Origin: a virus
Lineage: Duplodnaviria > Caudoviricetes
IMG/VR virus record: IMGVR_UViG_3300022309_000006
Coordinates: 1 to 61,934 of that record
DNA length: 61,934 nt
Reading direction: 5' to 3' (one strand)
This document shows positions 15,098 through 52,154 of this stretch, piece after piece. The translations under genes were made by a program, and so were the position numbers. Below the pieces are notes generated by a model that saw only the letters and a program-made list of their open reading frames with translations, did no database searches and had not been told where the DNA came from. Positions within the stretch are counted from its first letter, which is position 1, and the number at the start of each line of letters is the position of its first letter.

Positions 15098-15519
15098 CCG
15101 GACGAGACCTCATCACGCGGGCCCGCCAGGAGGTGGAGCTCAAGACCAAGTGGCGGCACCAAGGCCGCGAGCCCGGCCAGGCCCTGGACTGCGTGGGGCT
15201 GCTGTATTGCGTGGCGTGGGCCCACGGCCTCGAGGCCGAGGACATCCGCAACTATTCGAAGCGCCCCGGGAGCCAGGCCCTGTACGAGACCCTCGATCGG
15301 TACTGCGAGAACATCGGCACCGAGGCCGCCCGGCTGCCGGGCGACATTCTGGTGCTGTCGGTGGCCGGGGAGGACCCGCAACACACCGCCCTGTGGACCG
15401 GCGACGGCACCGTGATCCATGCCTCCGCGCAGCACCGCAAAGTGGTGGAACAACGGTTTGACGACGACCTGCGCCGGGGCCTCTGCCGCGTGTATCGGCT
15501 GAAAGGGCTCGATGGGTAA
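15094..15519 (+). CDS. NlpC/P60 tail-associated peptidase
   Basis: WRHQGR...LDCVGL, PQHTAL, VIHA. Confidence 0.88.
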   Translation: MTGRDLITRARQEVELKTKWRHQGREPGQALDCVGLLYCVAWAHGLEAEDIRNYSKRPGSQALYETLDRYCENIGTEAARLPGDILVLSVAGEDPQHTALWTGDGTVIHASAQHRKVVEQRFDDDLRRGLCRVYRLKGLDG

Positions 15520-32766: not shown

Positions 32767-32838
32767 AAGAGACCTCCTTGGTTGATACCCCGGGCTTGGG
32801 ACCGGGGCTGCGGTTTACCGGGCCCGGAGGCCCGTCCC

Positions 32839-33051
32839 TCACCGGCCCGCGCAGCGTTCCATCGCCAGCGTGGCCCAGCGCCGCGTCTTGAACCCGCGGC
32901 CATTGTTCTGTGGAAGATTGAAGCCCGGATGGCCCATGGTGATGAACCACCGGCCCGAGGTTTGGTTTTGCTTGACCGCCTCCTCGCAGCCACAGCAGAG
33001 TTCGACGGCCATCCGATCGGCACAAGTGGAGAGTAAGAACTGGGGGATCAT
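32839..33051 (-). CDS. hypothetical protein
   Basis: 70 aa after repeat unit 2; GRWFITMGHPGFN. Confidence 0.65.
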   Translation of the reverse strand: MIPQFLLSTCADRMAVELCCGCEEAVKQNQTSGRWFITMGHPGFNLPQNNGRGFKTRRWATLAMERCAGR

Positions 33052-37881: not shown

Positions 37882-40185
37882 ATGCTGCTCGAAGAAATCC
37901 ACCTCCGCCATTTCGGAAGTTACGACGACGCGACGATTGACCTCCGCGGCCTCACGGCGGCCGTGGTGCTGGGGCCGAACGGCGCCGGGAAATCCACCGC
38001 GTTCATCGATGCCGTGTTGTGGGCCCTGTACGGGCAAGCCCGGAGCAGCACCGACCACATGCTGAAGACCGGCGAGACCGACATGACGGTCGTGGTGACG
38101 TTCCGGCTGAACCAGCAACGCTACCGGGTGATCCGCAAGCGGAGCCTCCGGACCAAGGCGGGCAAGTCCGACCTGGACCTGCAGGTGGACCGCGACGGCA
38201 CCTGGGCGCCGTTCGGCGCCGGACGGGTCGCCGAGACTCAAGCGCAGATCGTGACGTTGCTGCATTGCGACCACAGCCTACTGACCGCCACGTCCTTCTT
38301 TCTGCAGGGGCAAGCCGACCGCTTCAGCCGCGCCACCCCGGCGGAGCGCAAGACGATCCTGGCGGGCATCCTGCGGCTCGACCACTACGCGGACCTGAAG
38401 CAGCGCGCCGGGCAGGAGCTGACCCGGCTGGACAGCCGCCGGGCCGCGAAGTGGGAACAGCTCCAGGCGCTCACCGATTTGGACGAGACCCTGGCGGCCC
38501 ATCACCGCCAGGCGCGCGAACTGACCGACGGGATCCAGTATGCCGAGCAGGAGCACCACACGGCCGACCAAGCCCATGCCGCCCTCCGGGACCAGATCAC
38601 GGCGCTGAAGGGGCAACTCGCCACCTTGCCGGACCTGCAGGCCACCCTCGAGACCGACCGCGCCACCGTCCAGCCCACCGACACCAAACTGCAGGCCCTG
38701 CTGCAGCGGCACGAACGCTGGAGCAAGATCACGCGGAACGCGCCGGTGATCCGGGAGAAGCTCGAGGCCCATCGCGCCACCTCCAGCGTGATCGCGGCCC
38801 TCGAGCGGACCCTGCAGGACCGGGAACCGGACCTCACGATGGTCCGGGACCAAGTCGCCCACGCCCAGCGCGGCGTGGCGGACCTGCAGGCCCTCGAAGC
38901 CCTGAGCCGCGACCTCCGGCACCAGATCGAGACCGCCGCGACGGCCTACCAGCGCGAGACCGCGGACCTGACGGCCGACCAGACGCGCGACACCACCCAG
39001 GCGGCCCTCTTGACCCAGGTGCCATGCGGCCAGGACCTGCAGGGGCGCTGCCAATTCACCACGCTGGCGGTCGCGGCCCACGCCCGGATCCTGCCCCGCG
39101 AGCAACGCCTGGCCGGGCGCCCGCAAGATTGGCCCGCCATCGTGGCGCTGGTGGCCCCGGACCAGGCCGTCGAACAGGTCAAACTCGAAGCCCAGATCCA
39201 GGAGGCCCGCCGGGCTAACTGGACCGGCATCGTGGCGGAACGCCAGGCTGTCCTGCGGGACCTTGAACAGCACCACCAGCGCGACCGCCAGACCCTCGCG
39301 CAGAAGAAAGGCCTGCTCCCCGAGCTGGAACGCTTCACCGTCCTGCTGCCCGAGCTGGAGCTGGCGGAACGGGAGCTGCCCGGCATCGCGGCCGAGATCA
39401 ACAGCCTGACGGCCTCCATTACCCAGCTCCGCCAGCGCATCACCGACCAGACCCTGGCGATCGCCCGGCTCCAACAGATCCCCACCACCATCACGACCCT
39501 CGAGCAACGCGCCCAGGACGCCCGCGCGCGGATCACGACGATCCAGCGCCACCAGACCACCCTGAGCGAACAGCTCGGCGCCACCCGGGCCGCCATCCAG
39601 CACACCGAGGAGGCCTTAGCCTCGGCCGACAGCCTCCGGGCCGACCTCGCGGCCCTCGAACTCAGCTGCGACCAGTACCGGACCCTGCAGGAGGCCTACG
39701 GGCTTATCCCCACGTTCATGATGGAAAACGCCCTGCCGATCGTGGAACAAGAGACCAACGCCCTGCTGGCCCGGATCAGCCGCACCGGCATGCAGGTCCG
39801 GTTTGACACGCAGAAGGCCCTCAAGAGCCGGGACGGCCTGGCCGAAACCCTCGAGATTGTGGTGCGGGACCAGGTAGGCGAACGCCCGCTCGAGAACTAC
39901 AGCGGCGGCGAACGGTTCCGGCTGGACCTGGCCCAGCGGATCGGCCTGTCGAAATTACTGGCCCGCCGGGCCGGAGCCCGGATCGAGACCCTGGCGATCG
40001 ACGAAGGCCTGGGCAGCCTGGACGAAGACGGCCTCCTGCAGCTGCAGGAATGCCTGGGCGCCCTGGGCGACGATTTCAAACTCGTGCTGGTCATCACCCA
40101 CGTCGACCAAATGAAGGCCACGTTCCCCAGCCAGATCATGATCACCAAAGACCACCAGGGCAGCCACGCGGAGGTACTGACATGA
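37882..40185 (+). CDS. sbcC: SbcC/Rad50-like SMC ATPase
   Basis: Walker A GPNGAGKS, Q-loop LQG, coiled coil, YSGGE, IDEGLGSLD, VITH. Confidence 0.93.
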   Translation: MLLEEIHLRHFGSYDDATIDLRGLTAAVVLGPNGAGKSTAFIDAVLWALYGQARSSTDHMLKTGETDMTVVVTFRLNQQRYRVIRKRSLRTKAGKSDLDLQVDRDGTWAPFGAGRVAETQAQIVTLLHCDHSLLTATSFFLQGQADRFSRATPAERKTILAGILRLDHYADLKQRAGQELTRLDSRRAAKWEQLQALTDLDETLAAHHRQARELTDGIQYAEQEHHTADQAHAALRDQITALKGQLATLPDLQATLETDRATVQPTDTKLQALLQRHERWSKITRNAPVIREKLEAHRATSSVIAALERTLQDREPDLTMVRDQVAHAQRGVADLQALEALSRDLRHQIETAATAYQRETADLTADQTRDTTQAALLTQVPCGQDLQGRCQFTTLAVAAHARILPREQRLAGRPQDWPAIVALVAPDQAVEQVKLEAQIQEARRANWTGIVAERQAVLRDLEQHHQRDRQTLAQKKGLLPELERFTVLLPELELAERELPGIAAEINSLTASITQLRQRITDQTLAIARLQQIPTTITTLEQRAQDARARITTIQRHQTTLSEQLGATRAAIQHTEEALASADSLRADLAALELSCDQYRTLQEAYGLIPTFMMENALPIVEQETNALLARISRTGMQVRFDTQKALKSRDGLAETLEIVVRDQVGERPLENYSGGERFRLDLAQRIGLSKLLARRAGARIETLAIDEGLGSLDEDGLLQLQECLGALGDDFKLVLVITHVDQMKATFPSQIMITKDHQGSHAEVLT

Positions 40186-40667
40186 CCGATCCCCGACCCC
40201 CTCGATCCATCCCCCCGGCCGCGTTCCGCGGCCAGGTCGACCTCTCCGACTGGGAGCTGGAGACTTGGCACAAGATCCTCGACCTGCACCGCGAGGCCAT
40301 CGCGGAGATGCTCCAACACGCCCTGGAGTCATCCCAGGAGGACCGAGGCATCCGCCTGACCATGCGGAGCGACGGCACCGCGCCGCATCACGGGGCAGGC
40401 TCCCCGCTCGACCTGGTGCTGGAGCTGAGCCTGCTGCGCGCGGACGACGACGACGAGATCCCCTGCTTCTTGTTTCCCTTTGCCGACGTGCTCACCAGCG
40501 CGATCTGGCCGGTGCCGTTCCACCCCGACGACACCAGCGCCTTCGATATGCTAGACGAGGAGGACCTCCCGCGGGTCCAGCGGATCCGGGACGCCCTCCG
40601 GGCCACCGCGGACCAGATCGACCACAGCCTGACGGCCGCCACCCAGCATCTCACCAAGGAGGCCTGA
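40182..40667 (+). CDS. acidic hypothetical protein
   Basis: ATGA overlap, GGAGG RBS. Confidence 0.6.
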   Translation: MTDPRPPRSIPPAAFRGQVDLSDWELETWHKILDLHREAIAEMLQHALESSQEDRGIRLTMRSDGTAPHHGAGSPLDLVLELSLLRADDDDEIPCFLFPFADVLTSAIWPVPFHPDDTSAFDMLDEEDLPRVQRIRDALRATADQIDHSLTAATQHLTKEA

Positions 40668-40668
40668 C

Positions 40669-40875
40669 ATGACCCCCGACATCGACGACACCCCCCCGGT
40701 CGCCCCGTACATCCCGGAGGCCCTCGCGCTCGCCCAGCGCCTCGGGCTCTCGCCCGGCCACCCGCAGCACGTCACGATCCTGCACGACGACTGGTGCCCG
40801 CTGTTGGCCCGCACCGGCCCGTGTTGCTGCGATTTCGAGGTGGTGCCCGGCGACACCCCGGAGCCGCCCCGATGA
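40669..40875 (+). CDS. small HDDWCP-motif protein
   Basis: AAGGAGG RBS; HDDWCP...CCC. Confidence 0.6.
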   Translation: MTPDIDDTPPVAPYIPEALALAQRLGLSPGHPQHVTILHDDWCPLLARTGPCCCDFEVVPGDTPEPPR

Positions 40876-41132
40876 GCTGCCGCCCTGTTGTCATCCAGAA
40901 CCCCGACGGCACCACCACGACCGGCATCGTGTGCGGACCGAGCCACCGGCTCACCCGGCAGCCCTGCAGCGTCCCGGGCTGCTTCGAAGGCGCCGGATAC
41001 CTGTGCGACTACCCGCTGGCCGGGCAAGCCCGGACCTGCGACGCGCCGCTGTGCCGCCACCACCGACGCCCGATCCGGAAGGACCGGGACTATTGTGCTC
41101 ACCATTTTGAGGCCGCCATGCGCGGAGAATAG
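40872..41132 (+). CDS. Cys/His-rich Zn-binding protein
   Basis: LCDYP...TCDAPLC..H...DYC..H. Confidence 0.65.
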   Translation: MSCRPVVIQNPDGTTTTGIVCGPSHRLTRQPCSVPGCFEGAGYLCDYPLAGQARTCDAPLCRHHRRPIRKDRDYCAHHFEAAMRGE

Positions 41133-41140
41133 GAGCCCCC

Positions 41141-41332
41141 ATGCCATATACCCGCTACCGTTGCGCCCACTGCCCCGAGACCTTCCCCTTGACCGTCGAG
41201 GGCGCCAAAGCCGCCGTCGAGCACGAACGCCAGACCCGCCACACCGTGCAGGCTTCCCCCTGGGCCGTCGAGCCCGTCCCGGACCCGAAAGTGTCAAGTA
41301 TTTCCGACGGTTCCACCATCACGCCTAATTGA
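41141..41332 (+). CDS. small C2H2-like protein
   Basis: C..C...H.....H; AGGAG RBS. Confidence 0.55.
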   Translation: MPYTRYRCAHCPETFPLTVEGAKAAVEHERQTRHTVQASPWAVEPVPDPKVSSISDGSTITPN

Positions 41333-41362
41333 TTGACAGGCCCGCGCGGGCCCAGCTATACA
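41333..41362 (+). promoter_or_regulatory. putative promoter with 14-bp palindrome in the spacer
   Basis: TTGACA 41333-41338, GGCCCGCGCGGGCC, TATACA; upstream of the HTH/replication operon. Confidence 0.45.
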
Positions 41363-41391
41363 GACCGGCTTCGAGTCCACCTGGAGGATTC

Positions 41392-41673
41392 ATGACCACC
41401 CGACGACGCCCGCGCCCTGCTCAAACCGGCACGATTCCGCCCCGCCCCCACATGGGGGACCAGCTCGACAAACTGCTCCGCGATCTCGGCCTCACTCAGG
41501 CCGAATTTGCCCGGCGGCTCGAGGCCCGCGGCGCCGACATGAGCCGCCAAAACCTCTCCCTCAAGATAGCCCGCGCGGATTGGAACGCGCAGGATCTCTG
41601 GACGATCGCCACCACCGCCAACGTCCCGACGGACTATTTCTTCGGCGTCACGACCCCCACGGCGGCCCGATGA
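41392..41673 (+). CDS. XRE/Cro-like HTH protein
   Basis: LRDLGLTQAEFARRL...MSRQNLS...IA....VP.DYFF. Confidence 0.8.
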   Translation: MTTRRRPRPAQTGTIPPRPHMGDQLDKLLRDLGLTQAEFARRLEARGADMSRQNLSLKIARADWNAQDLWTIATTANVPTDYFFGVTTPTAAR

Positions 41674-42701
41674 GGCCCTACGCCACGGTGTCGCCCACGT
41701 TCTGGACCGGCCAGACCGGCCGGGCCTTGACCAAGTTGTCCCGGGACAGCGCCGCCGGAGCCGACGCCCAACGGCTCGCGTTCTACCTGATCACCAGCCC
41801 CCACGCGACGATGCTGGGCCTGTACTACCTGCCCCTGGCCTACTGCACGACCGACACCGGGCTCGACGAGAAACGCCTCCGCAAAGCCTTGACCGTCCTG
41901 ACGGAGCTGGGGTTCAGCCAGTACGACCCCGAGACCCACTACGTCTGGGTCGTGGAGTTTGCCCGGTTCCAGATCGGCCCCCAGCTCCACCCCGGCGACA
42001 AACGGATCCCCATGCTGAACCGGCTGTACCACGACCTCCCCCACAACCGCTGGCTCGGCGGATTCTTCGACCGCTACGCCGACGCCTTCCACCTCCAAAC
42101 CCGCCGGTGTGAGCACACCCGAGATGCCCCATCGATGGGGCATCGAAGGGGCATCGAAGCCCCATCGGAGGGGCATAAATGCCCCTGTGTTCCTGTTCCT
42201 GTTCTTGGTGTGCTCCCTCCCGCTTCCGATTCTGCTCTTTCTTCCTCCGAGGATGGGGAGGGGTGCAGGGGAGGGGAAGGGCCCGCGGCCGCGGACGGGA
42301 CCGCCACGGTTCCAGCCGAGATCCCCCCGGAGCCCGACGTGACGCCCGCCTGGGTGGTGGAACGGTGGAACGCCATCCAGGGCGTCGAGCCGTTCAATTT
42401 CACCCGGTACTTCAACCCGGAGATCGGCGTCGGGAAAAAACTCCTGGCTCGCGTCAAGCAACACGACAGCCCGCAATGGTGGCTTGACTATTTTACGAAA
42501 ATCCAGCAAAGCAACTGGCTAGTCGAGAGCTTTCACCCGCATCTCGACTGGGGCCTCGAGCCGCGCAACATCCAGAAGGTGCTGCAGGGGAATTACATCA
42601 AGACCCTGAAGCGCCCCCGGGCCAGCGCGTATGGCCGGATCATTGACGACCTGCAGGCCGCGGACGAGCGCCCCCCACCTAAACCAGGAGGGGAGCCATG
42701 A
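41670..42701 (+). CDS. phage replication initiator protein
   Basis: YATVSPTFW...YLITSPH.TM.GLY.LP; C-terminal DW.L...N..KVL.GNY; internal iteron-like repeats. Confidence 0.8.
   Translation: MRPYATVSPTFWTGQTGRALTKLSRDSAAGADAQRLAFYLITSPHATMLGLYYLPLAYCTTDTGLDEKRLRKALTVLTELGFSQYDPETHYVWVVEFARFQIGPQLHPGDKRIPMLNRLYHDLPHNRWLGGFFDRYADAFHLQTRRCEHTRDAPSMGHRRGIEAPSEGHKCPCVPVPVLGVLPPASDSALSSSEDGEGCRGGEGPAAADGTATVPAEIPPEPDVTPAWVVERWNAIQGVEPFNFTRYFNPEIGVGKKLLARVKQHDSPQWWLDYFTKIQQSNWLVESFHPHLDWGLEPRNIQKVLQGNYIKTLKRPRASAYGRIIDDLQAADERPPPKPGGEP
42123..42207. repeat. iteron-like repeats / putative replication origin
   Basis: Perfect 22-bp palindrome GATGCCCCATCGATGGGGCATC, further GGGGCAT/GCCCC copies, (TGTTCC)n run. 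Confidence 0.65.
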
Positions 42702-43129
42702 CACGCTTACCAACCAAAGATTTCCTGCAGGGCTGGGCCTTGTTGGTCGCGCAGCCCTATGGCGTCGCGTATCGCCGCGAGCCCGAAGCTGAACAGGTCC
42801 AGCGCCGCTGCTGGCAAGAGGAATTCAGCGACGCCCCCCCGAGGGTCTGGCGCGACGCCGTCTCGTTTTGGGTGCGCCAAGAAGACCACTTCCCGCTGAT
42901 CCCCGAGATGCGGGCCCACATCACCCGGCTGACGCCCCCGCCGGTGCCCACGGCCCGCGTGGCGTTGGCGCCCGGCCCCACCATGCCGGTCGACGAAGCC
43001 GATCTCCTGGCTTACGCGGAACGGCACGGCGTCTCGGTCTTCGTGGCGGTGAAGCAGTGGGAAGCCGTGCGGGCCTGGGTGCAGGCCGGACGGCCCATCC
43101 CGCTCCCCCAGGAGCCCCTCCCGACATGA
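42698..43129 (+). CDS. putative helicase loader/inhibitor (G39P-N-like)
   Basis: Follows initiator; W...F.D.....WR.AV..W.....HFP.I.E. Confidence 0.55.
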   Translation: MTRLPTKDFLQGWALLVAQPYGVAYRREPEAEQVQRRCWQEEFSDAPPRVWRDAVSFWVRQEDHFPLIPEMRAHITRLTPPPVPTARVALAPGPTMPVDEADLLAYAERHGVSVFVAVKQWEAVRAWVQAGRPIPLPQEPLPT

Positions 43130-43389
43130 ACGCCCTACCCGGCCCGATCTCGAAAGCGCGGCAACAGGCCTCGGCGGCCCGGGCGGCCGCCAGCCACCTC
43201 GCCCGCCGCCAGCTCGCCACCCCCCGGGGGATCGTGCAGACCGACCGGATCGCCGAATTCCGGGAACGGATCCGGGATTTCTGCACCGGCCCGCCCGAGT
43301 ACACGACGGTCCGGGCTCACCACACCCTGTCGGCCGACGACTACGCCGCCCGGATCGTGCAGCTGATCGAACAGCACGGGCCGCCCTGA
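43126..43389 (+). CDS. hypothetical protein
   Basis: ATGA overlap, AGGAG RBS. Confidence 0.5.
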   Translation: MNALPGPISKARQQASAARAAASHLARRQLATPRGIVQTDRIAEFRERIRDFCTGPPEYTTVRAHHTLSADDYAARIVQLIEQHGPP

Positions 43390-43391
43390 CG

Positions 43392-44162
43392 ATGCCGTAC
43401 CGTGATCCTGCCCGACGCCGGGAAGCCACCCGGCTGGGCAGCCGCGCCCATTACGAACGACACCGGGAGGCCATCATCGCCCGGACGGCCGCCCGCAAGG
43501 CGCGCCAGAAACAACTACGGAAGGACTGGGAGATGTCGACGCCGCAACGATGCCCGAAATGCCAGGGCAGCATGACCCGCCAGGAGATGGGCGGCCGCCA
43601 GTTTTGGCAATGTGAACGCGAATCCTGTGGCGGCCGGATCCTGCTGGACCGCCCGCACGTCCCGCACGGCTTCACCCCGCAGACCCTGCCGGTCGAGCCC
43701 GAGAAGCCTAGCCGCCGCCGCCCGCCGGTCGTCCAGGAAGACGCCACAGAGATCGACGACAACCCCTTGACCGAGCTGGAGAATTCCCTGCTGGGCGACG
43801 AAATCCCGATCGACCCCGACGACGACGCCGTCCAGGACCCCGACGCGCCGGACCCGCCTGCCCGCCAAACTGCCCCGGAGCGCGACGATCCGGCCGACCG
43901 GGATGAGCCGGAGCCCGATCTGCCCTCGACGCGCCCTACGGCCAGCCAGCGGCCTCCCCGAGGGGGTCGCCCGCGAGCGCCTTACAGCCCCTCCTCCCTG
44001 TCCGGGGCTTTCGACCCCCGGGCCCAGGCGTTGAGCGCCCTCGACGAGGCCATCGGGGCGCTGGACCAAGAGACCGTGGCGCTGCAGGCCCGGCTCGCCA
44101 CCATCGAGACCGAACGGCAGGCCTTACAACAGGCCAGCGCCGTGCTGCGCCGGAGGCCCTGA
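43392..44162 (+). CDS. hypothetical protein with Zn ribbon and C-terminal coiled coil
   Basis: CPKC...CERESC, acidic linker. Confidence 0.6.
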   Translation: MPYRDPARRREATRLGSRAHYERHREAIIARTAARKARQKQLRKDWEMSTPQRCPKCQGSMTRQEMGGRQFWQCERESCGGRILLDRPHVPHGFTPQTLPVEPEKPSRRRPPVVQEDATEIDDNPLTELENSLLGDEIPIDPDDDAVQDPDAPDPPARQTAPERDDPADRDEPEPDLPSTRPTASQRPPRGGRPRAPYSPSSLSGAFDPRAQALSALDEAIGALDQETVALQARLATIETERQALQQASAVLRRRP

Positions 44163-44163
44163 C

Positions 44164-44322
44164 GTGGAGTTATTCACAGCCTTCCTCGAGGGCCTGACGA
44201 CCGGCCTCTGGACCGGCGCCTGGTGCATCGGGTGGGTCTTGGCGATGGTGACGTGCCTGGGGATCTTGGGCGGCCTGCTCCGCACCGTGAGCTGGCTGCT
44301 GCAGCGCCAGGAGCCCCGCTGA
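44164..44322 (+). CDS. small membrane protein
   Basis: GGAGG RBS, GTG start, hydrophobic 52 aa, TGATG coupling. Confidence 0.5.
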   Translation: MELFTAFLEGLTTGLWTGAWCIGWVLAMVTCLGILGGLLRTVSWLLQRQEPR

Positions 44323-44759
44323 TGCGGACGAACTACGGCGATCTGCCGCTGACGCTCGACCCGCGGACCGGCCGCGCCACCCTGGCGCCCGCGCGCCCCG
44401 TGGTGCCGGTGGCGCCGGGCCCTGTGCCCACGTTATCCCCAGGCGCCCGGTACCGTTCGAAGACCGAAGCCCGGTACGCCGGGCACCTCGAGGCCTGCCG
44501 GATGGCCGGGCAGATCCGGGAGGCCCGGTACGAAGCCCTCCGCTTCACCCTCGGGCCCCGCACGACCCTGACGCCCGATTTCTGCGTGGAGCGCCCGGAC
44601 CGGCAGCTCGAGCTGCACGAAGTCAAAGGTTTCGCCCGCGAGGACGCCTGGGTGAAGCTCAAGATCGCGGCCGTCCAGTGGCCCTGGTTCCGCTGGGTGC
44701 TGGTGACGTGGGACCGGCGCGCCGGGACCTGGCAGCTCCGGGAGGTGCCCCGGGGATGA
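44322..44759 (+). CDS. PD-(D/E)XK endonuclease (DUF1064-like)
   Basis: SKTEARY, TPDF, HEVKG, VKLK.AA. Confidence 0.82.
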   Translation: MRTNYGDLPLTLDPRTGRATLAPARPVVPVAPGPVPTLSPGARYRSKTEARYAGHLEACRMAGQIREARYEALRFTLGPRTTLTPDFCVERPDRQLELHEVKGFAREDAWVKLKIAAVQWPWFRWVLVTWDRRAGTWQLREVPRG

Positions 44760-45223
44760 GCCGCCACCGCATCAACCCGAAGGCCGGATGGGTGAGTCCC
44801 GCGGTCTTGCCGAAAGGCCCGAACGGCCGGACGCAATGCCGGTATTGCCAGGCCGAAGTCCCCACCGGGCGCCGGTCGTTTTGCAGCGACGTCTGCGTCC
44901 ACGAATGGAAGCTCCGGTCCGACCCCACCTACGTCCGCCGCCAGATTCACCGGCGGGACCGCGGCGTCTGCAGCGCGTGCGGCCTCGACACCGACCGCTT
45001 CAAGGAGGCGATCGCCCGGCTGCCTTACGGCCAACGCCTCCCGGCCCTGCTGGCCCGGGGCTTTAAGCAGCACGGCCACCTGTGGGAAGCCGATCACATC
45101 CAGCCGGTCGCCGACGGGGGCGGCGAATGCGGCCTCGAGAATTACCGAACCCTGTGCCTCCCGTGCCACAAACTCGCCACACGTCAGTGGCGACACACCC
45201 GTGCCTCAACCAAGGAGACCTAA
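44756..45223 (+). CDS. HNH endonuclease
   Basis: RDRGVC..C, WEADHI.PV..GGG...L.N.RTLC..CH. Confidence 0.9.
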   Translation: MSRHRINPKAGWVSPAVLPKGPNGRTQCRYCQAEVPTGRRSFCSDVCVHEWKLRSDPTYVRRQIHRRDRGVCSACGLDTDRFKEAIARLPYGQRLPALLARGFKQHGHLWEADHIQPVADGGGECGLENYRTLCLPCHKLATRQWRHTRASTKET

Positions 45224-45224
45224 C

Positions 45225-46166
45225 ATGACCGACACCGCCACCGTGCTCGACCCCGCAGACCTGCAGGACGACGCCCAGCGCGACACCCTGTGGAAGCTCA
45301 CCAAGGACCTGAAGAAAGCCGCCAAAACCCTGTCGGCCGACGAGGCCCGCTACCTGGTGGACCGCTACTACCAGCTGCAGAACGACCGGATCCGCGCCGA
45401 CGCGCAAGTCCGGGCCGCCGGAGACGCCGGAGAACCGAACGCCCTGCTGGGCTGGATGTCCGAGACCTCCTGGGCGATGGAGTGCGCGATCAAAAAAGCC
45501 CTGGACATTTATTCTGACCAACACGCGCCCGGCCGCTGGGCCAAGGCGCAGTACGGGATCGGGCCGGTGCTGTGCGCCGGGCTGCTGGCCCACATCGACA
45601 TCACCAAGGCCCCGACGGTGGGGAAAATCTGGCGATTTGCCGGGCTGGATCCAACCGTGACGTGGGAGAAGAAAACCAAGCGCCCGTGGAACGCCCGGCT
45701 CAAGACCCTGTGCTGGAAAATCGGCGATTCCTTCGTGAAATTCCACAACCGCGACGCCTGCGTCTACGGCAAGCTGTACGCGGAACGCAAACGCTACGAG
45801 ATCGACCGGAACCTGCGGGGGGAGCATGCCGAGACCGCCCGGCTGACCCTCGAGGCCAAGAAGTTCGACAAGAGCACCCCGACGTACCACGCCTACCAGG
45901 ACGGCAAGCTGCCCGACGGCCGGATCGAACTCCGGGCCCGCCGGTGGGCCGTCAAGCTGTTTTTAAGCGGCCTGCACGAAGCGATGTATTTTGACCGTTA
46001 CGGCACGCTGCCCCCCAAACCGTATGCGCTCGAGCACCTGGGGCACGCGCACTACATCGCGCCGCCGCACCTGGAGGAAATCCCCGGCTGGGCCGAGGCC
46101 CGCCGGAAGGCCGCGCCACTGCCCAACTCAACCGAACCGAGAGAGCCATCCGCATTCGATGAGTGA
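45225..46166 (+). CDS. tasA: TIGR-associated Tas protein, nuclease-less TasA type (IS110/Nop-like RNA-binding domain)
   Basis: Coiled coil YYQLQNDRIR, GIGPVLCAGLLA.ID...GKIWRFAGL.P, WNARLK.L, Y...Y..RK, RARRWAVKLFL; no N-terminal DEDD RuvC; directly followed by a 36-nt dual-repeat array. Confidence 0.8.
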   Translation: MTDTATVLDPADLQDDAQRDTLWKLTKDLKKAAKTLSADEARYLVDRYYQLQNDRIRADAQVRAAGDAGEPNALLGWMSETSWAMECAIKKALDIYSDQHAPGRWAKAQYGIGPVLCAGLLAHIDITKAPTVGKIWRFAGLDPTVTWEKKTKRPWNARLKTLCWKIGDSFVKFHNRDACVYGKLYAERKRYEIDRNLRGEHAETARLTLEAKKFDKSTPTYHAYQDGKLPDGRIELRARRWAVKLFLSGLHEAMYFDRYGTLPPKPYALEHLGHAHYIAPPHLEEIPGWAEARRKAAPLPNSTEPREPSAFDE

Positions 46167-48042
46167 CCCAGCGATCTCGATAGGACGGGGAGCAGGAGGG
46201 ACCCGAAGTAACGGATCGGACACGGACTGCGAGGGAGCCGACAGCGACGAGTGCCCCGTCGAACAGAAGCGACCCGTGATGAAGGATGGCGCGGATCAAT
46301 TGAGGGACCCGAGGGAACAGATCGGACGTGGTATTAGGAGGGAGCCTCCTGCGACGAGTGCCCCGTCGAGAGAGAGCGAACCGTTCAGGAAGATTGACCG
46401 AGCATGACGAGTGACCCGTAGGAAGCGATCGGACAGAAGAAGGAAGGGACCCAAGAGATTAGATCGGACGTGGCAGACGAGGGAGCCGACATCAAGGCGC
46501 GCACCGTAATACTTGAGCGAGCCAGGGGCACGTGAGGGGACCGATGCAAAAGAGCGAGCTGTCACGGGCGAGTGGACCGAAAGGATGGAGCGAGCCGCCG
46601 CAATAGAGTGGTCCGAACCACCAGAGTGCCCCGGGTCACTCTGGCAATACTAACACGGTTTATTAAAGCCGCAATGGAGTGACCCGAACCGCCAGAGTGC
46701 CCCGTACTCCTTGAGGGAGCCGTTACCGATGAGAGGGCCGAGTTTCGAGAGCGAGCCGCTGTCGGACGAGTGACCCGCCAGACCCGAGGAGTCCGAGAGA
46801 GACGAGGGAACCACGGGGTACGATAGAGCGCGTATCGAGAGTGACCCGCGCTAGCGGAGCAGCCCGTAGCACCTGAGGAAACCGGGCCTTCGGAGGGGAC
46901 CGATTCGCGTGAGTGAGCCGTCAGGTCCGATGCGATCGCAAGACAAGAGCGAACCGTCTTGAATGAGGGGGCCGCGACCACGGAGTGAGCCGCTGTCCGT
47001 GAGGGGACCGCGTGTTATGAGCGAACCGTTCAGGAAGATTGACCGAGCATCACGAGTGACCCAAGCTAGGAGAGTGCCCCGCGAGCAGCGAGGGAGCCGC
47101 CGTACAAGAGGGACGTGCAAGAAAAGAGCGAGCCGAGACGACGGAGCGCACCGTCGCCCGCGAGTGAACCGGGTTGAGTGAGTATGCCGGGGCTTGGAAG
47201 TGTAGCCACTTTACGGGAGCATCCCGTGACTCCAGAGCGAACCGTGACATGAAGCGCACCGCTTGGGACGAGTGACCCGCTCACGACGAGAGGCCCGGCC
47301 ATTGTGAGGGAACCGTCAGTAACGAGACCCCGAGCGTCCCGGTATTTGGGAGTGAGCCGAGATAACTGAGTCACCCTGTGAGAGAGCAGCGAGCCGATTC
47401 TGAGAAGCGCACCGCTGGAAGTGAGCGACCCGGCCAACCAGATCGGACGTGTGTCCAGAGGGAGTCGAGAGAAAAGAGCGCACCGTAGTAAAAGAACGAC
47501 CCGGACTAACAGGGAGCACCGGTACACATGAGGGACCCGAGAAAGAGCAGCGCACCGAGCTTGTAGAGGGAGCCGATGAGAGAGATCCCCGCGATTCTGA
47601 AGAGCGACCCATCGTAACCGTGAGCACCGAGAAACATGAGGGAGTCAGGACCGTTGAGCGCCCCGTCAAGACCGAACGAACCGGCCTAACAGGGAGCACC
47701 GCTAAACATGAGTGAGTTGATTTGCCTGAGCGCACCGGAGGAAAGGAACGACCCATGACGAGAGAGCGCCCCGTATCGACGAGGGAGTCGAGCGTTGAGA
47801 GCGCCCCGAAAAGTCCGAACGACCCCGGGGACAGAAGCGGACCGCGCTTGATGAGGGAGCCATGCACTGCGAGCACCCCGTACAGATTGAGCGAGCCGAA
47901 GACTAGGAGCGGACCGAATTTGATGAGGGAGCCATGCACTGCGAGCACCCCGTAGAGGTGGAGCGAGCCGTCGACCCTGAGTGGACCGCAAAGAGTAAGC
48001 GAGCCGAAAGAGTTGACCAACCCGAATGCTGAGAGCGCCCTA
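46143..48042 (+). ncRNA. TIGR-like tandem interspaced guide RNA array (~52 units of 35-36 nt)
   Basis: ~104 motifs at ~18-nt spacing, alternating GAGNGANCCR with GAGNG(C/G)NCCG or GATNGGACG, separated by 8-9 variable nt; no credible ORF. Confidence 0.85.
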
Positions 48043-48058
48043 ACGACAGGAGGACCCC

Positions 48059-48427
48059 ATGCCCGATGCAGCCCTGACCGAACACACCCACCGGATCACG
48101 CGCCAGCTGGAACGCCCGCTGACCGATGCCGAGCGCCTCGAGATTGGCGTGAACCTCTCCGAGGCCCTCGAGGCCGCGCAGGACGCGGAACGCCGCAAGC
48201 GCGAACTCGACGGCCGCCTCAAAAAAGACATCGATTATTACCGCGGGATGGCCGACGATCTGGCAGGCGTCCTACGGAAAGGCGTGCGTGAAGGCCCCGT
48301 CGAGGTGCTGGTGACCCGCGACTGGACGACCGGCCGGGTGACGTTCCACCGGGCCGACACCGGCGAGCAGATCGAGGAACGCGCCATGACGATCGAGGAA
48401 CGCCAAACCACCATCCCGGAGGCCTGA
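48059..48427 (+). CDS. hypothetical protein
   Basis: AGGAGG RBS; R.DTGE.IE.R.MT.EERQ motif. Confidence 0.75.
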   Translation: MPDAALTEHTHRITRQLERPLTDAERLEIGVNLSEALEAAQDAERRKRELDGRLKKDIDYYRGMADDLAGVLRKGVREGPVEVLVTRDWTTGRVTFHRADTGEQIEERAMTIEERQTTIPEA

Positions 48428-48429
48428 CG

Positions 48430-48837
48430 ATGCCGAGCCACAACCATGTGACCCTGATGGGCAACCTGACCCGCAACCCCGAACTGCGCTACACCCCGAA
48501 CGGTACCCCGGTGTGCAACCTGGGCCTCGCGGTCAACCGCCGGTACAAACAAGGCGACGACTTGAAAGAGGAAGTCGCGTTCATCGACATTGTGCTGTTC
48601 GGCAAGACCGGCGAGACCGCCGTGCAGTACCTGAGCAAGGGCGACTGCGCCCTGTTCGAAGGCCGCCTGCAGCAACGCCGCTGGGAGACCGAGGACCACC
48701 AGGTCCGGAGCAAGATCGAAGTGGTGGCCCACGGGATGACGTTCATCAAAACCAAATACCAACAGCAGGGCGCCGGGCCATCCAGCGGTGGCGCCGACCC
48801 GCCCCAGGAGCACCACGATGACGCCCCTTACGAGTAA
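48430..48837 (+). CDS. ssb: single-stranded DNA-binding protein
   Basis: N.V.LMGNLTRNPELRYTP.G, YLSKG, EGRLQ.RRWE, acidic tail DDAPYE. Confidence 0.95.
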   Translation: MPSHNHVTLMGNLTRNPELRYTPNGTPVCNLGLAVNRRYKQGDDLKEEVAFIDIVLFGKTGETAVQYLSKGDCALFEGRLQQRRWETEDHQVRSKIEVVAHGMTFIKTKYQQQGAGPSSGGADPPQEHHDDAPYE

Positions 48838-49261
48838 CCCGGCGGGCCGGTGGATTTACGTGCTGCACCCGTTCCGCGGGACCGGCCTACAGGGCGAACG
48901 CGAGAAGAACCGCGCGCGGATCGAGCTGATCTGCCGGGAGATCATGGGGCTGGGGCACGTCCCGCTGTCGCCCGTGCATTTTGCAGGCTTCCTGGACGAC
49001 ACCCACCCGCACGACCGCGCGCAGGCCTTCGCCCTCTGCCAGGCCTTGATCCGCCGGGCCGACGAGGTGTGGAGCTTTACGGTCGCGTCCCGCCGGTTCG
49101 ACCCGGTGGGCCTCCGCTACATCCACACCCCGGTGGTGAGCGCCGGGTGCGCCCGGGACCTCGAGGACGCCACGAAAGCCAACAAACCCATCATCTACTT
49201 CCACTACGAGGAAGGGGCCGGTGCCGTGCGCGATTTACGGCTGTCCCGTGGTGGTGTATAA
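48818..49261 (+). CDS. DUF4406/nucleoside deoxyribosyltransferase-like protein
   Basis: IYV.HPFRG...N, GHVP.SP, C..LI.RADEVW, SAGC..DLE.A...KPI. Confidence 0.7.
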   Translation: MTPLTSNPAGRWIYVLHPFRGTGLQGEREKNRARIELICREIMGLGHVPLSPVHFAGFLDDTHPHDRAQAFALCQALIRRADEVWSFTVASRRFDPVGLRYIHTPVVSAGCARDLEDATKANKPIIYFHYEEGAGAVRDLRLSRGGV

Positions 49262-49315
49262 GCCTGCGGGAACATGGGGCAAACGCCCCGCGTTCTACGT
49301 GGAACAGGAGTAGCG

Positions 49316-50746
49316 ATGCCAACCAAGCGCCCCGCCACGAAGTCCCGTGCCCCGATCGCCCGGCCCGAGCCCGGCGAACAGATCGCTCCCTTCGACATTG
49401 CCCAGCTGCAGCTGGACCCGAAAAACGCCCGCGCCCACGGCGATCGAGACATCAAGGCCATCATGGCGTCGATCCGCCAGTGGGGCTGGACCAACCCGAT
49501 CATCGTGCGGGCCGGAACCACCCAGGTGGTGTGCGGCCACGGCCGCGTCCAAGCTGCCATCCGGCTGGGCCTCAAGACGGTCCCGGGGATCAGCCGGGTG
49601 TTTGCCACCGACGCCGACGCCAAGGCCTACGCGATCGCCGACAACCGGACGGCCGAGCTGTCGGCCTGGGACCTGCCGAACCTCAAGGATTCCTTGACGG
49701 AACTCGAGGGCCAGGGCTACGACATCGCGTTGACCGGCTGGACGGTCGACGAACTCCAGAAGATGCTCGACTTTGACAGCGAGCCCGAGCACGACCCCGA
49801 CACCCTGCCGGTCGTGGGCGGCCCGCCGGTCGCCAAGCCCGGCGAGCTGTGGTGTCTCGGGGACCACCGGATCCTCTGCGGCGATGCCCAGGACCCCGCG
49901 GTCTGGTTCCGGCTGATGGGCGGCCGGAAAGCCCACGCGATCTTTACCGACCCGCCCTATGGCGTGGCCTATGAAGCCCAAAGCGGCAAATACGACGCGA
50001 TCAAGAACGATAGTCTCCGGCACGGCGCCCTCGCGGAATTCCTCTGGAGGACCTTTCGCAACCTCGTGCAGCACGCCGAGGACACCGCCGCGTTCTACAT
50101 TTGGCACGCCTCGAGCACCCGGCAGGACTTCAGCCATGCGCTGATAAACGCCGGGTTGACCGAACAGCAATACCTGATCTGGGTGAAGCCCGCGCTCGTG
50201 CTGGGCCACGACGACTACCAATGGGCCCATGAGCCCTGTTTCTACGCCGCCAAGTCCGGCCACAAACCGGCCTGGCACGGAGACCGGAGCCAACCGACCA
50301 CCTGGCGGTTCAGCCCCGTGAGCCCCGAGGGCATCATGGCGAGCGTCGGCCGCGGCCTGACGCTGCTGCACGGCCCCGAGACCCTCCACCTGACGACCGA
50401 CAGCCCCAAGACCAAGAAAACCCGGACCGTCCGGGTCCCCGAGGACGGCCGCCCCGTCCTGATCGACATCGGCAACCAGCCACACCACGACTGCTGGGAA
50501 GTCTCCCGGGACCACAACGCCGAGCACCCCACCCAAAAGCCCGTCGCCCTCGCGGTCCGGGCGTTGCGGAACAGCACCCAGTACGGCGAGCTGGTGCTCG
50601 ACGCCTTCCTGGGCAGCGGCACCACCCTGATGGGCGCCGAGATCCTGGGCCGGACCTGCTACGCCACCGAAATGGAGCCGAAGTACGTGGACCTGGCGGT
50701 GCGCCGGTGGGAGCTGTTCACCAAGAAGAAAGCCGAACGCGCATGA
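49316..50746 (+). CDS. ParB-like N-terminal domain fused to N4/N6 DNA methyltransferase
   Basis: P.NAR.H, SI..WGW.NPI, GHGR, IADNR; TDPPYG, HPTQKP, LDAFLGSGTT. Confidence 0.92.
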   Translation: MPTKRPATKSRAPIARPEPGEQIAPFDIAQLQLDPKNARAHGDRDIKAIMASIRQWGWTNPIIVRAGTTQVVCGHGRVQAAIRLGLKTVPGISRVFATDADAKAYAIADNRTAELSAWDLPNLKDSLTELEGQGYDIALTGWTVDELQKMLDFDSEPEHDPDTLPVVGGPPVAKPGELWCLGDHRILCGDAQDPAVWFRLMGGRKAHAIFTDPPYGVAYEAQSGKYDAIKNDSLRHGALAEFLWRTFRNLVQHAEDTAAFYIWHASSTRQDFSHALINAGLTEQQYLIWVKPALVLGHDDYQWAHEPCFYAAKSGHKPAWHGDRSQPTTWRFSPVSPEGIMASVGRGLTLLHGPETLHLTTDSPKTKKTRTVRVPEDGRPVLIDIGNQPHHDCWEVSRDHNAEHPTQKPVALAVRALRNSTQYGELVLDAFLGSGTTLMGAEILGRTCYATEMEPKYVDLAVRRWELFTKKKAERA

Positions 50747-51027
50747 GCCTCAAGATTACCAAGACCCCTCGGATCTTTTGCCCGAAGTGCGACAACCTCC
50801 TGAGCGCCATCAGCGACTTCGACGGCCACACCCCGAAGCCCAACGACTTCTCCCTGTGCGCCTACTGCCTGACCCTCCTGATCGTGACGGAAGGGAACGG
50901 GATGCGCCTCCCCACCCCGGCGGAGGAGGCCGAAGCCCGGGCCACGCCCGCCGTCCAGGAACTGCGCCAGGCCTTGCTGCACCACCGTGGCCCCGTGACG
51001 GAGATGAAACGCCCCCATGCGAAGTGA
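50743..51027 (+). CDS. Zn-finger hypothetical protein
   Basis: CPKC...P.P.D.SLCAYC. Confidence 0.65.
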   Translation: MSLKITKTPRIFCPKCDNLLSAISDFDGHTPKPNDFSLCAYCLTLLIVTEGNGMRLPTPAEEAEARATPAVQELRQALLHHRGPVTEMKRPHAK

Positions 51028-51241
51028 CCCCCCGGACACGACCGCGCCGGACCGTTGCCACTTCGGGCACCCCTGTCCCCCGGCACGCCTGACGCGCTGC
51101 TACTTCCCCGAGGGCTGCTGGTGCTACCCCGACGACCACGACCAATGGCTGTGCCCACAGCACACGATCAAAGGCCTGCAAAACAACGCAGGCACCACCG
51201 TGCAGGGCTACCTGCACACCACCAAGGAGGATCCGACATGA
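51017..51241 (+). CDS. Cys-rich hypothetical protein
   Basis: FPEGCWCYPDD..Q.LCPQH. Confidence 0.5.
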   Translation: MRSDPPDTTAPDRCHFGHPCPPARLTRCYFPEGCWCYPDDHDQWLCPQHTIKGLQNNAGTTVQGYLHTTKEDPT

Positions 51242-51480
51242 ACGCCACCGCCACCTACCACGAACTCACCTGTCTCGACGAGACCGGCGACACCAAGCTG
51301 ATCTGGGATGAAGCGAACCAGGAGGAGATCGACGCCGCCAAGCAGATGTTCGAAACCCTGAAAAAGAAAGGCTATGTCGCGTTTACCGTGAACCGCAAAG
51401 GCGACAAAGCCGAGCAAGTCGATCGGTTCGACCCGAGCCTCGAGAAGATCATCATGGCGCCCCAGCTGCAGGGAGGCTGA
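51238..51480 (+). CDS. 80-aa protein ending in Gly-Gly
   Basis: AAGGAGG RBS; C-terminus IIMAPQLQGG. Confidence 0.8.
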   Translation: MNATATYHELTCLDETGDTKLIWDEANQEEIDAAKQMFETLKKKGYVAFTVNRKGDKAEQVDRFDPSLEKIIMAPQLQGG

Positions 51481-51482
51481 CG

Positions 51483-52154
51483 ATGCCGACACACCCCACG
51501 ACCGCGTCCTACCCGGAGGCCTGGCACGGCTGGACCACCACCGGCAGCGCTATCACCGAGCACGACCCCTGGGACACCTGGACCACGACCTATACGACCA
51601 ATACGACCACTTCGGCCAGCGCCAACACCTGGCGCGTGTGGGTGGCCCCCGGGACCAGCACCGGCACCAGCACCACCGTCTGGCACACCTGGACCGGGAC
51701 CGCCTCGACGGCCGCCCCCACGGTGTACGCGCAACGGCAGGTCGCCGTCAGCCCCGAGGAGGCCGCCCGGCTGGCCGCCGAGGAGGCCGAACGCCAAGCC
51801 CACGCGGCCCAACAGGCTGCCGAGCTCAAAGCCAAACAGGAGGCCGCCAAACAGAAGGCCGAAACCTTGCTGCTGGCCCACCTGACGCCCGAGCAAGAGC
51901 AGGCCTGGCGGGAAAACCGGGCCATCTTCGTGACGGTGCCGTCCGGCCGCCGGTACCGCATCCGGGACGGCCTGGCCCACAATATCCAGCTCGTGGACGC
52001 CGATGGGCAGCCGCTCGAGGACCTGTGCGTCCATATTTCCGGCTGCCCGACGCCCGACAACGTCCTGGCCCAAAAGCTGGCCCTCTTGGCCGACGAAGAC
52101 GGCGTGCGGCGCCGGGCCAACATCCGGCCCCTGCGGCCCCGAGGTGTCGCGTGA
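51483..52154 (+). CDS. hypothetical protein with Thr/Trp-rich N-terminus and globular Cys-containing C-domain
   Basis: W..WTTT repeats, coiled coil, SGRRYRI...HNI...LC.H....P..D..LAQKLAL..DE. Confidence 0.75.
   Translation: MPTHPTTASYPEAWHGWTTTGSAITEHDPWDTWTTTYTTNTTTSASANTWRVWVAPGTSTGTSTTVWHTWTGTASTAAPTVYAQRQVAVSPEEAARLAAEEAERQAHAAQQAAELKAKQEAAKQKAETLLLAHLTPEQEQAWRENRAIFVTVPSGRRYRIRDGLAHNIQLVDADGQPLEDLCVHISGCPTPDNVLAQKLALLADEDGVRRRANIRPLRPRGVA

Follow-up and report, generated by a model that had tools for sequence, protein, structure and literature searches.

TIGR-Tas systems (TIGR, tandem interspaced guide RNA), published in 2025, belong to a family said to hold 20,096 tas loci (Faure et al.); what we say of published members, here and below, draws on passages of that paper and of a 2026 Nucleic Acids Research (NAR) paper. 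Among the described members, TaTasR (PDB 9MTY; Faure et al. 2025, Science) has an active RuvC domain, 9-nt spacers and UG...CCA boxes, and in its structure the two edge halves of the processed guide RNA (tigRNA) are joined by a box C/D pair and by a single further pair. SpTIGR-TasH of Salicola phage CGphi29 (NC_020844; structures 9W03 and others) carries an N-terminal HNH domain, and its Y289/H296 are the catalytic pair of metal-independent pre-tigRNA processing (2026 NAR paper). Two further members are solo Nop-domain proteins with an array: the dual-repeat FpTasA, which binds 36-nt RNAs, and MbTasA of the stem-loop branch, which represses transcription in a guide-dependent manner. Here we describe a locus in IMG/VR virus record IMGVR_UViG_3300022309_000006, a tailed-phage contig analysed over its whole length of 61,934 nt (the window), which consists of a gene for a 313-aa Tas protein (tasA) and an adjoining array of 106 short repeats. 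It is highly probable that the two together make up a dual-repeat TIGR-TasA system, sited in the phage's replication/recombination module; its family membership, array anatomy, strand, unit phase, closing helix and fast spacer turnover could all be read by computation. The locus may already be among the 20,096 published ones and adds no new kind of system. It is a favourable natural case, with ~45 well-formed guides in a 62-kb phage contig and edge repeats whose letters change between units, so that tigRNA phase and closing helix are readable from the DNA alone.

The tasA gene (45225..46166, + strand) opens with an ATG 8 nt 3' of an AAGGAG ribosome-binding site, and its product combines long N-terminal helices, a putative coiled-coil region, with a Nop-type RNA-binding domain and lacks a nuclease domain. 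A preliminary description of the window, made from the letters alone, had proposed a phage-borne system of TIGR-Tas type on the strength of an IS110 C-terminal/Nop-like signature in a 313-aa protein devoid of a DEDD RuvC domain, and these readings held up. The signature occupies residues 111–143 (GIGPVLCAGLLAHIDITKAPTVGKIWRFAGLDP); the sole Pfam match was the IS110 C-terminal family PF02371 at 111–145, below threshold (E 0.0075; 17.1 bits, cut-off 21.3), with no DEDD or other nuclease family (HNH, RuvC) found by Pfam. In a phmmer search, TasR (9mty_A, E 2.3e-14, the best solved sequence match) and TasH (E 2.4e-7) were the only two PDB sequences matching TasA at E ≤ 10. An AlphaFold2 monomer model built from 34 homologues (predicted local distance difference test score, pLDDT, 87.1; predicted template modelling score, pTM, 0.83) contains long helices at 16–33, 38–67 and 73–98 and a purely helical N-terminus, the protein beginning directly with the helical region. 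When this model was submitted to Foldseek, a check that had been suggested at the outset, ranks 1–10 were all TasH or TasR chains (E 5.6e-7 to 4.1e-6), and IS110-family recombinases came next (E 0.016–0.076). TasA also matched PHROG 4285 (E 7.5e-48) and is full length, as in stand-alone relatives. Because its N-terminus is purely helical and no nuclease domain is present, the protein is of the nuclease-less Tas subtype, TasA.

Alignment sets two residues of the TasA C-terminal loop, Y267 (codon 46023–46025, + strand) and H274 (codon 46044–46046), opposite SpTasH Y289/H296, making them a predicted metal-independent pre-tigRNA processing dyad. H274 is the same in all 34 TasA homologues, and Y267 in at least 90% of them. 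SpTasH shares the Nop domain with this dyad, is phage-borne like the window system and differs in its N-terminal HNH domain, identity to TasA being 23%. TaTasR has the same fold; unlike the window protein it carries the active RuvC domain, and it has W at the position of Y267. The likeness to FpTasA and MbTasA, drawn by description, lies in the solo Nop-domain protein with its array; FpTIGR uses 9-nt spacers whereas those of the window are mostly 8 nt, and MbTasA belongs to the stem-loop branch whereas the window system is dual-repeat and has no tasParB operon partner.

Adjoining tasA lies the dual-repeat TIGR array (46143..48058, + strand), delineated by repeat parse, periodicity, motif counts and unit pairing, with a 10-nt general repeat RAGNGNNCCR in two alternating classes and spacers mostly of 8 nt. 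It had been described as starting at the 3' end of the gene; it does adjoin tasA, and its true start, at 46143, falls inside the last 24 nt of the gene, overlapping the stop codon, while its 3' end abuts the ribosome-binding site of the next gene. The 1892 nt at 46167–48058 contain 61.5% purines versus 50.5% in the rest of the window, in keeping with the ~1.9 kb of purine-rich DNA originally noted. Autocorrelation of this segment gave the anticipated peaks at 18 nt (0.42) and 36 nt (0.41), together with further ones at 54 nt (0.37), 72 nt (0.385), 90 nt (0.35) and 108 nt (0.36) over a background of ~0.26, those at 72 and 108 nt standing slightly above their odd neighbours at 54 and 90. The chain parse recovered 106 repeats, 91 of them with a positive motif score; the 18-nt spacing of the preliminary count stood, and its ~104 motifs became 106. 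Spacers measure 8 nt (n = 87), 7 nt (n = 12), 9 nt (n = 4) or 16–17 nt (n = 3). The motif GAGNGNNCCG occurs 64 times in the window, versus 29.1 ± 5.6 in shuffles, none of 100 attaining that count; the array contains 51 of the copies, 50 of these on the + strand.

That two motif classes alternate was borne out in 85 of 105 neighbouring pairs versus 52.8 ± 5.1 in shuffles (0 of 20000), and in 87 of 105 with a simpler classifier, both classifiers having been picked after inspection of the data. Class A reads GAGNGA[GCA]CCR and class B GA[GT]NG[GC]NCCG or, in a 9-nt variant that produces 35-nt units, GATCGGACR; both have GAG at the start (box D) and CCG at the end (box C). We assigned class A to the edge and class B to the loop because the SpTasH array ends in a truncated class-A-like GAGCGAGCC before its terminator, following the rule that a truncated terminal repeat marks the edge class (Faure et al.). 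Counted as edge-loop-edge units of 35–36 nt, the array contains 41–46 well-formed units; the ~52 units of the preliminary description match the 52–53 obtained by length alone, and its quoted stretch at 47853–47924 reads exactly as given.

The closest counterpart of this arrangement is the SpTasH array. The SpTasH gene is located at L001:14395-15321 in the CGphi29 record, its array follows directly downstream on the same strand, the repeats AAGCGAGCCA and AAGACAACCA resemble the edge and loop repeats of the window (GAGCGAGCCG and GAGYGSMCCG), and the layout of 10+8+10+8 nt, with a 36-nt unit and 8-nt spacers, is the same. The two differ in size and in their borders: the SpTasH array (L001 ~15360-15750, ~0.4 kb) closes with the truncated repeat and a terminator, whereas that of the window comprises ~45 units, spans the tas stop codon and reaches into the ribosome-binding site of the gene that follows. 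Unlike those of SpTasH, the window edge repeats are not uniform across units at the positions of the closing pair.

This variation, at edge-repeat positions 4 and 7, makes the closing pair seen in the TasR structure testable within one array. Of 46 units, 45 pair position 7 of one edge repeat with position 4 of the edge repeat that follows (G-C 19, C-G 17, A-U 8, G-U 1), compared with a permutation mean of 21.0 ± 3.2 (0 of 100000 permutations reach 45). Controls gave 19 of 54 within the same repeat, 23 of 46 in reverse order, and 15–22 of 42–44 at offsets of two or three units. In a column analysis restricted to the 32 of 46 units of exactly 36 nt, columns 7 and 40 were paired in 31 units with 13 double changes, and columns 8 and 39 (position 8 with next-edge position 3) in all 32 (CG 28, UA 4); the four U-A pairs account for the odd GAACG.../...AGTCG edges. 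The unit covariation score was 0.552 versus 0.182 ± 0.039 in shuffles (0 of 500), and sliding the partners gave no more than 0.151. What covaries is exactly what the published passages describe at the ends of the TaTasR tigRNA, the box C/D pair and one extra edge-half pair. The next-edge covariation fixes the transcribed strand, the unit phase and the 36-nt tigRNA. It places processing, as far as can be predicted from sequence, between edge-repeat positions 4 and 7, which would yield a 36-nt RNA, and the DNA edge repeat would then be a composite whose 5' half belongs to the upstream tigRNA and whose 3' half belongs to the downstream one. The same across-unit test is applicable to any TIGR array and gives strand, phase and working units without RNA sequencing (RNA-seq).

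The real pairing partners are positions 3–8 and 4–7. Within the array the top mutual information belonged to positions 3–9 (0.384 bits, 0 of 2000 permutations); this pairing was rejected, since relatives showed 1643 pairable cases versus 1633 expected, of 2392. Across 85 loci positions 3 and 8 do covary, with 2609 pairable cases versus 1947 expected, of 3079 (G-C 1811, A-U 301, U-A 260, G-U 219), and 25 of 26 distinct consensus repeats have pairable positions 3–8 (GC, UA, AU or GU). Next-edge pairing was found in 572 of 613 units from the 27 relative loci with variable positions, several of which are near-identical copies and not independent cases; within-repeat pairing in the same loci was 455 of 640, with a random expectation of 442.

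Relatives of the locus are numerous. We retrieved 5644 TasA homologues at E ≤ 0.001, mostly 50–60% identical and labelled 'hypothetical' or 'transposase', and in IMG/VR 501 of 597 candidate stretches encode a TasA relative; 80 IMG/VR loci were kept for the viral-locus comparison. An 18-nt periodic region lies beside tas in 78 of these 80 (73 downstream, 24 upstream; median 806 nt, maximum 2075 nt), while 2.8% of the bases outside tas-side regions are likewise periodic, and one of the two loci without an array offers merely 110 nt of DNA after the gene. Each relative locus shows two alternating consensus repeats of its own, and the motif is co-oriented with tas (for example 47 vs 4 in L002 and 64 vs 3 in L032). 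Chains in relatives reach 116 repeats; the window array is long but not unique, and among the longest guide arrays in its clade. Another 35 relatives were found in genomes and metagenome-assembled genomes (MAGs) of many phyla, the best in a Bryobacteraceae MAG (60%); the scan of genome contigs returned these 35 with alignment A1, and no relative with the single TasA sequence. In GenBank phages, tblastn of the Tas protein gave only one weak record, Microcystis phage Mvi-JY20 (31% over 40% of the query), and megablast of 40000–52000 gave no match. One lineage (L036, L038, L039 and L044) has its array upstream of tas, with up to 92 repeats in L044, and in its loop repeat GATCGAGACA a U3-A8 pair replaces G3-C8.

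Two other kinds of element invite comparison. IS110/IS621 bridge-RNA recombinases have a homologous Nop-like RNA-binding domain, reflected in the weak PF02371 match, in the Foldseek hits that follow TasH and TasR, and in the frequent 'transposase' label of TasA homologues; the window locus differs in having no DEDD/RuvC-like domain, single bridge RNA or transposon ends, and a long guide array instead. With CRISPR arrays it shares an array of repeats and variable spacers beside an effector gene, and spacers that vary between close strains; it differs in its two alternating 10-nt repeat classes, its 8-nt spacers used in pairs, the absence of leader-end polarity, with relatives differing by internal blocks, and the absence of cas genes (no Cas family by name among the 22 window proteins scanned). 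Judged on sequence, every testable feature of dual-repeat TIGR-Tas appears to be present, and the defining features of IS110 transposases and of CRISPR are missing.

To characterise change in the array we compared contigs of four public runs (X1, X3, X4 and X6, of which X1 may be the source sample and the last three are from other studies) over 44600–48500; all four are sediment metagenomes of depth 2–5, and each variant is represented by one contig per run at low depth. The variants, from independent metagenomes, show unit-sized insertions and deletions and spacer-focused change. A 72-nt tandem duplication of two units (47853–47924 and 47925–47996, + strand; Tandem Repeats Finder (TRF) period 72, 90% matches) is present as a single copy in the X4 contig, where the joint runs from 47847 to 47920 and skips 72 nt; the unit at the duplication junction, 47889–47934, is the sole one of 46 without a closing pair, having G-G at these positions. 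A 141-nt block of eight repeats, or four units (46338..46478, + strand), is missing from the X3 contig (one contig, depth 3.1), with the joint between two identical GAGGGAGCC edge repeats that share 9 letters. Point differences listed for the array fall in spacers in 24 of 29 cases and in repeats in 5 (p = 4e-5; 711 spacer and 868 repeat nt covered), and the 24 spacer changes are confined to 15 spacers versus 21.4 ± 1.4 expected (p = 8e-5). Divergence of X3 amounts to 28 of 1344 nt in the array versus 1 of 1472 nt in the flanks (p = 2e-8). That 11 variant positions are common to X3 and X6 speaks against assembly error.

Close relatives were compared as well. In pairs such as L025/L027, in which tas differs by 0.8–4.4%, spacers are either identical or unrelated (22 with 0 mismatches and 26 with ≥3 in L025/L027), and shared spacers are collinear and broken by internal blocks, with no end polarity. 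Fast turnover is not universal, since arrays are identical despite diverged tas in L061 vs L078 (52 of 52 spacers; tas differing by 3.9%) and despite diverged flanks in L029 vs L046 (49 of 49 spacers; flanks differing by 3.7%), which suggests recent exchange or a sweep of whole arrays between related phages. Within the window array, 28 spacer pairs differ by ≤2 of 8 letters versus 19.2 ± 4.5 expected, indicating few local duplications, with most spacers unique.

It is possible, although we hold it only tentatively and rather doubt than expect it, that the array is a fast-evolving guide library in which the 36-nt tigRNA module cut mid-edge, and not the DNA repeat, is the unit of inheritance, with modules changing by block recombination and spacers by clustered replacement. 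Each 36-nt module would carry its own closing pair, modules would be gained or lost as internal blocks through recombination between like edge repeats, and spacers would change where they stand, several clustered bases at a time, at a pace far above that of the flanking genes. If true, guides would diversify without Cas1/Cas2-like machinery, which bears on the origin of spacers in TIGR arrays; natural targets, spacer origin and array origin or growth are called open in the passages of Faure et al. and of the 2026 NAR paper. Covariation of the closing helix, followed unit by unit in one array, and strain-level array change go beyond the published passages, and a limited full-text search of the literature found neither described.

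Spacers that follow edge repeats have 50% G+C and those that follow loop repeats 44%, versus 66% in the phage genome. Were the guide-library reading true, the targets suggested by this low G+C would be richer in A+T, promoters or foreign elements for example. The preliminary description had proposed joining the two spacers of a unit to look for targets, and this brought none above control level in the phage genome or in related loci. Against the phage genome, 81 adjacent spacer pairs (both joining orders, both strands, array masked) gave 0 exact, 0 one-mismatch and 6 two-mismatch sites, with 0, 0.3 and 4.1 expected (scaled from 1000 control pairs). Across phages, a search of 1.0 Mb of loci with 1441 units (taken from 116 sequences) gave 1 exact and 88 one-mismatch sites, versus 0–2 exact and 49–60 one-mismatch sites in five control sets of 1159–1209 pairs; this small excess is not convincing, because near-identical loci are in the search set. 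According to both papers, short spacers make target calls unreliable.

By analogy with published work on relatives, we propose the following course of events. The array would be transcribed on the + strand, probably together with tasA; co-transcription is likely because the array abuts the ribosome-binding site of the next gene and no promoter or terminator consensus brackets it. A TasA dimer would bind the precursor RNA, and the C-terminal Tyr267/His274 loop would cut inside each edge repeat, between positions 4 and 7, to yield ~45 tigRNAs of 36 nt (some of 35 nt). Each is expected to read 5'-(A)N7-C-C-R / 8-nt spacer A / 10-nt loop repeat / 8-nt spacer B / G-A-G-N4-(G)-3', its ends closing through C8-G3 plus the unit-specific N7-N4 pair. 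Each spacer would pair with one DNA strand (dual-strand targeting), and, as there is no nuclease domain, the outcome would be binding or transcriptional repression and not cleavage.

Several points weigh against reading the locus as a working TIGR-TasA system. The array itself supplied the repeat classes and the motif model, ~15 of the 106 repeats are degenerate, and the array holds a 34-nt non-array insert and one 16-nt 'spacer'. No consensus for a sigma-70-type promoter or a terminator was found around the array, terminator-like sites occurring at chance level and none of them in the array, while published TIGR arrays typically end in a terminator (Faure et al.). None of the eight public runs listed for the locus is on record as RNA, and the MbTasA repressor is a stem-loop-type TasA, not of this clade. 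The redundancy among the 27 relative loci and the absence of exact or one-mismatch self-targets, both given above, belong here as well.

Among other explanations, the one that fares best, improbable as we judge it, concerns the stand-alone HNH endonuclease gene immediately upstream (44678..45223, + strand; PF01844, E 2.1e-7), whose product might be recruited in trans by TasA, the pair forming a two-component RNA-guided nuclease equivalent to a split TasH. The gene order, HNH then Nop, is the domain order of TasH, the HNH stop and the tasA start are 1 nt apart, and the HNH domain is intact by Pfam. Yet a homologue of this HNH lies beside tas in none of 115 related loci, and PF01844 is found in none of the upstream genes of 75 relatives, which are heterogeneous (HNH_3 1, DUF968 4, with helix-turn-helix (HTH) regulators, single-stranded DNA-binding protein (SSB), polymerase and others). 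The nearest solved relative of the HNH protein is the ZRANB3 HNH (E 1.7e-14), with no TasH match at E ≤ 10, and the full length of TasA is that of relatives that stand alone. Free-standing HNH genes are common in phage genomes. A predicted complex of TasA (alignment A1) with the HNH protein scored 0.00, which weighs neither for nor against interaction. The HNH gene is probably not part of the Tas system.

A decaying or silent relic, in which gene and array are homologous to TIGR-Tas and working guides are no longer made, would explain the degenerate repeats, the interruptions at 46634–46667 and 47316–47331 and the missing terminator. We regard it as very improbable: drift would destroy the covarying closing pair that is kept in 45 of 46 units, repeats are conserved between strains where spacers change, and TasA keeps the invariant residues of its family, the Y/H dyad included. 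It is extremely improbable that the repeats act at the DNA level, as iterons or centromere-like sites for a phage protein such as the ParB-domain methyltransferase encoded 1.2 kb downstream; regular short repeats near replication genes and the ParB-like domain protein at 49274–50746 fit that idea, but the strand asymmetry is strong, the repeats are co-oriented with tas in relatives, covariation makes sense only as RNA pairing 33 nt apart, and arrays go with tas and not with ParB (a homologue of the ParB-methyltransferase being near tas in 1 of 115 loci). Finally, translation of the region as a hexapeptide-type repeat protein, which the preliminary description had named as an outcome that would undo its proposal and which 18 nt (six codons) and minus-strand open reading frames (ORFs) of 234 (47316–48020), 153 and 139 aa might suggest, has next to no probability and is refuted, short of peptide evidence, by 5–37 stops in each of the six frames, by ORF G+C that is flat over codon positions (0.59/0.57/0.63, versus third-position G+C (GC3) of 0.82–0.86 in real genes), by frame-breaking steps of 17, 19 and 26 nt, and by the lack of a credible Pfam match in any of five ORFs (the single match, E 0.049 and 14.4 bits, lying far below cut-off), the segment being non-coding as first described.

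Turning to local features of the TIGR array, the A+T-rich 34-nt interruption (46634..46667, + strand) sits between 37-nt direct copies at 46597–46633 and 46668–46704 that are 89% alike, and it opens with an inverted repeat copy (minus-strand motif match at 46632–46641), creating the palindrome GAGTGCCCCGGGTCACTC; a rearrangement scar and an inserted element are both conceivable origins. A sub-block rich in 35-nt units (46161..46478, + strand, from the repeat list) uses the loop repeat variant GATCGGAC(R), which from its sequence would be a one-base-shorter form of the relatives' GATCGAGACA loop repeat (consensus of L044, L036 and L039). An Rfam scan of the array gave no match. Past its end, the X3 and X4 contigs stop matching at 48150–48270, with loose ends at 48156, 48187–48188 and 48242, and X4 has 36 foreign letters at this break, inside the 122-aa gene after the array; the segment looks like a strain-variable region or recombination breakpoint.

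The 62-kb contig encodes a large terminase, a portal, a MuF-like head protein, a minor tail protein and a tape-measure protein, in agreement with the phage origin proposed for the system, as well as SbcCD-like nucleases, a DnaD-like loader, a resolvase-like DUF1064 protein, SSB and the ParB-domain DNA methyltransferase, and tasA is situated in the replication/recombination module. No terminal repeat was found in the contig. The resolvase-like DUF1064 gene (PHROG 190, 3e-14) overlaps the HNH gene by ~80 nt in the listed ORFs, the stretch 44223–45223 (+ strand) running straight into tasA. At 49274–50746 (+ strand), 1.2 kb past the array, a ParB-like N-terminal domain is fused to a DNA methyltransferase (PHROG 498, 4.5e-125); this gene is probably not the published tasParB, because it is not a conserved neighbour of tas. 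Elsewhere in the window, Rfam identified a type-P5 twister ribozyme (RF02684) on the minus strand at 32790–32843, with 60.8 bits against a gathering score of 37.6 (E 3.4e-10) over the full length of the model.

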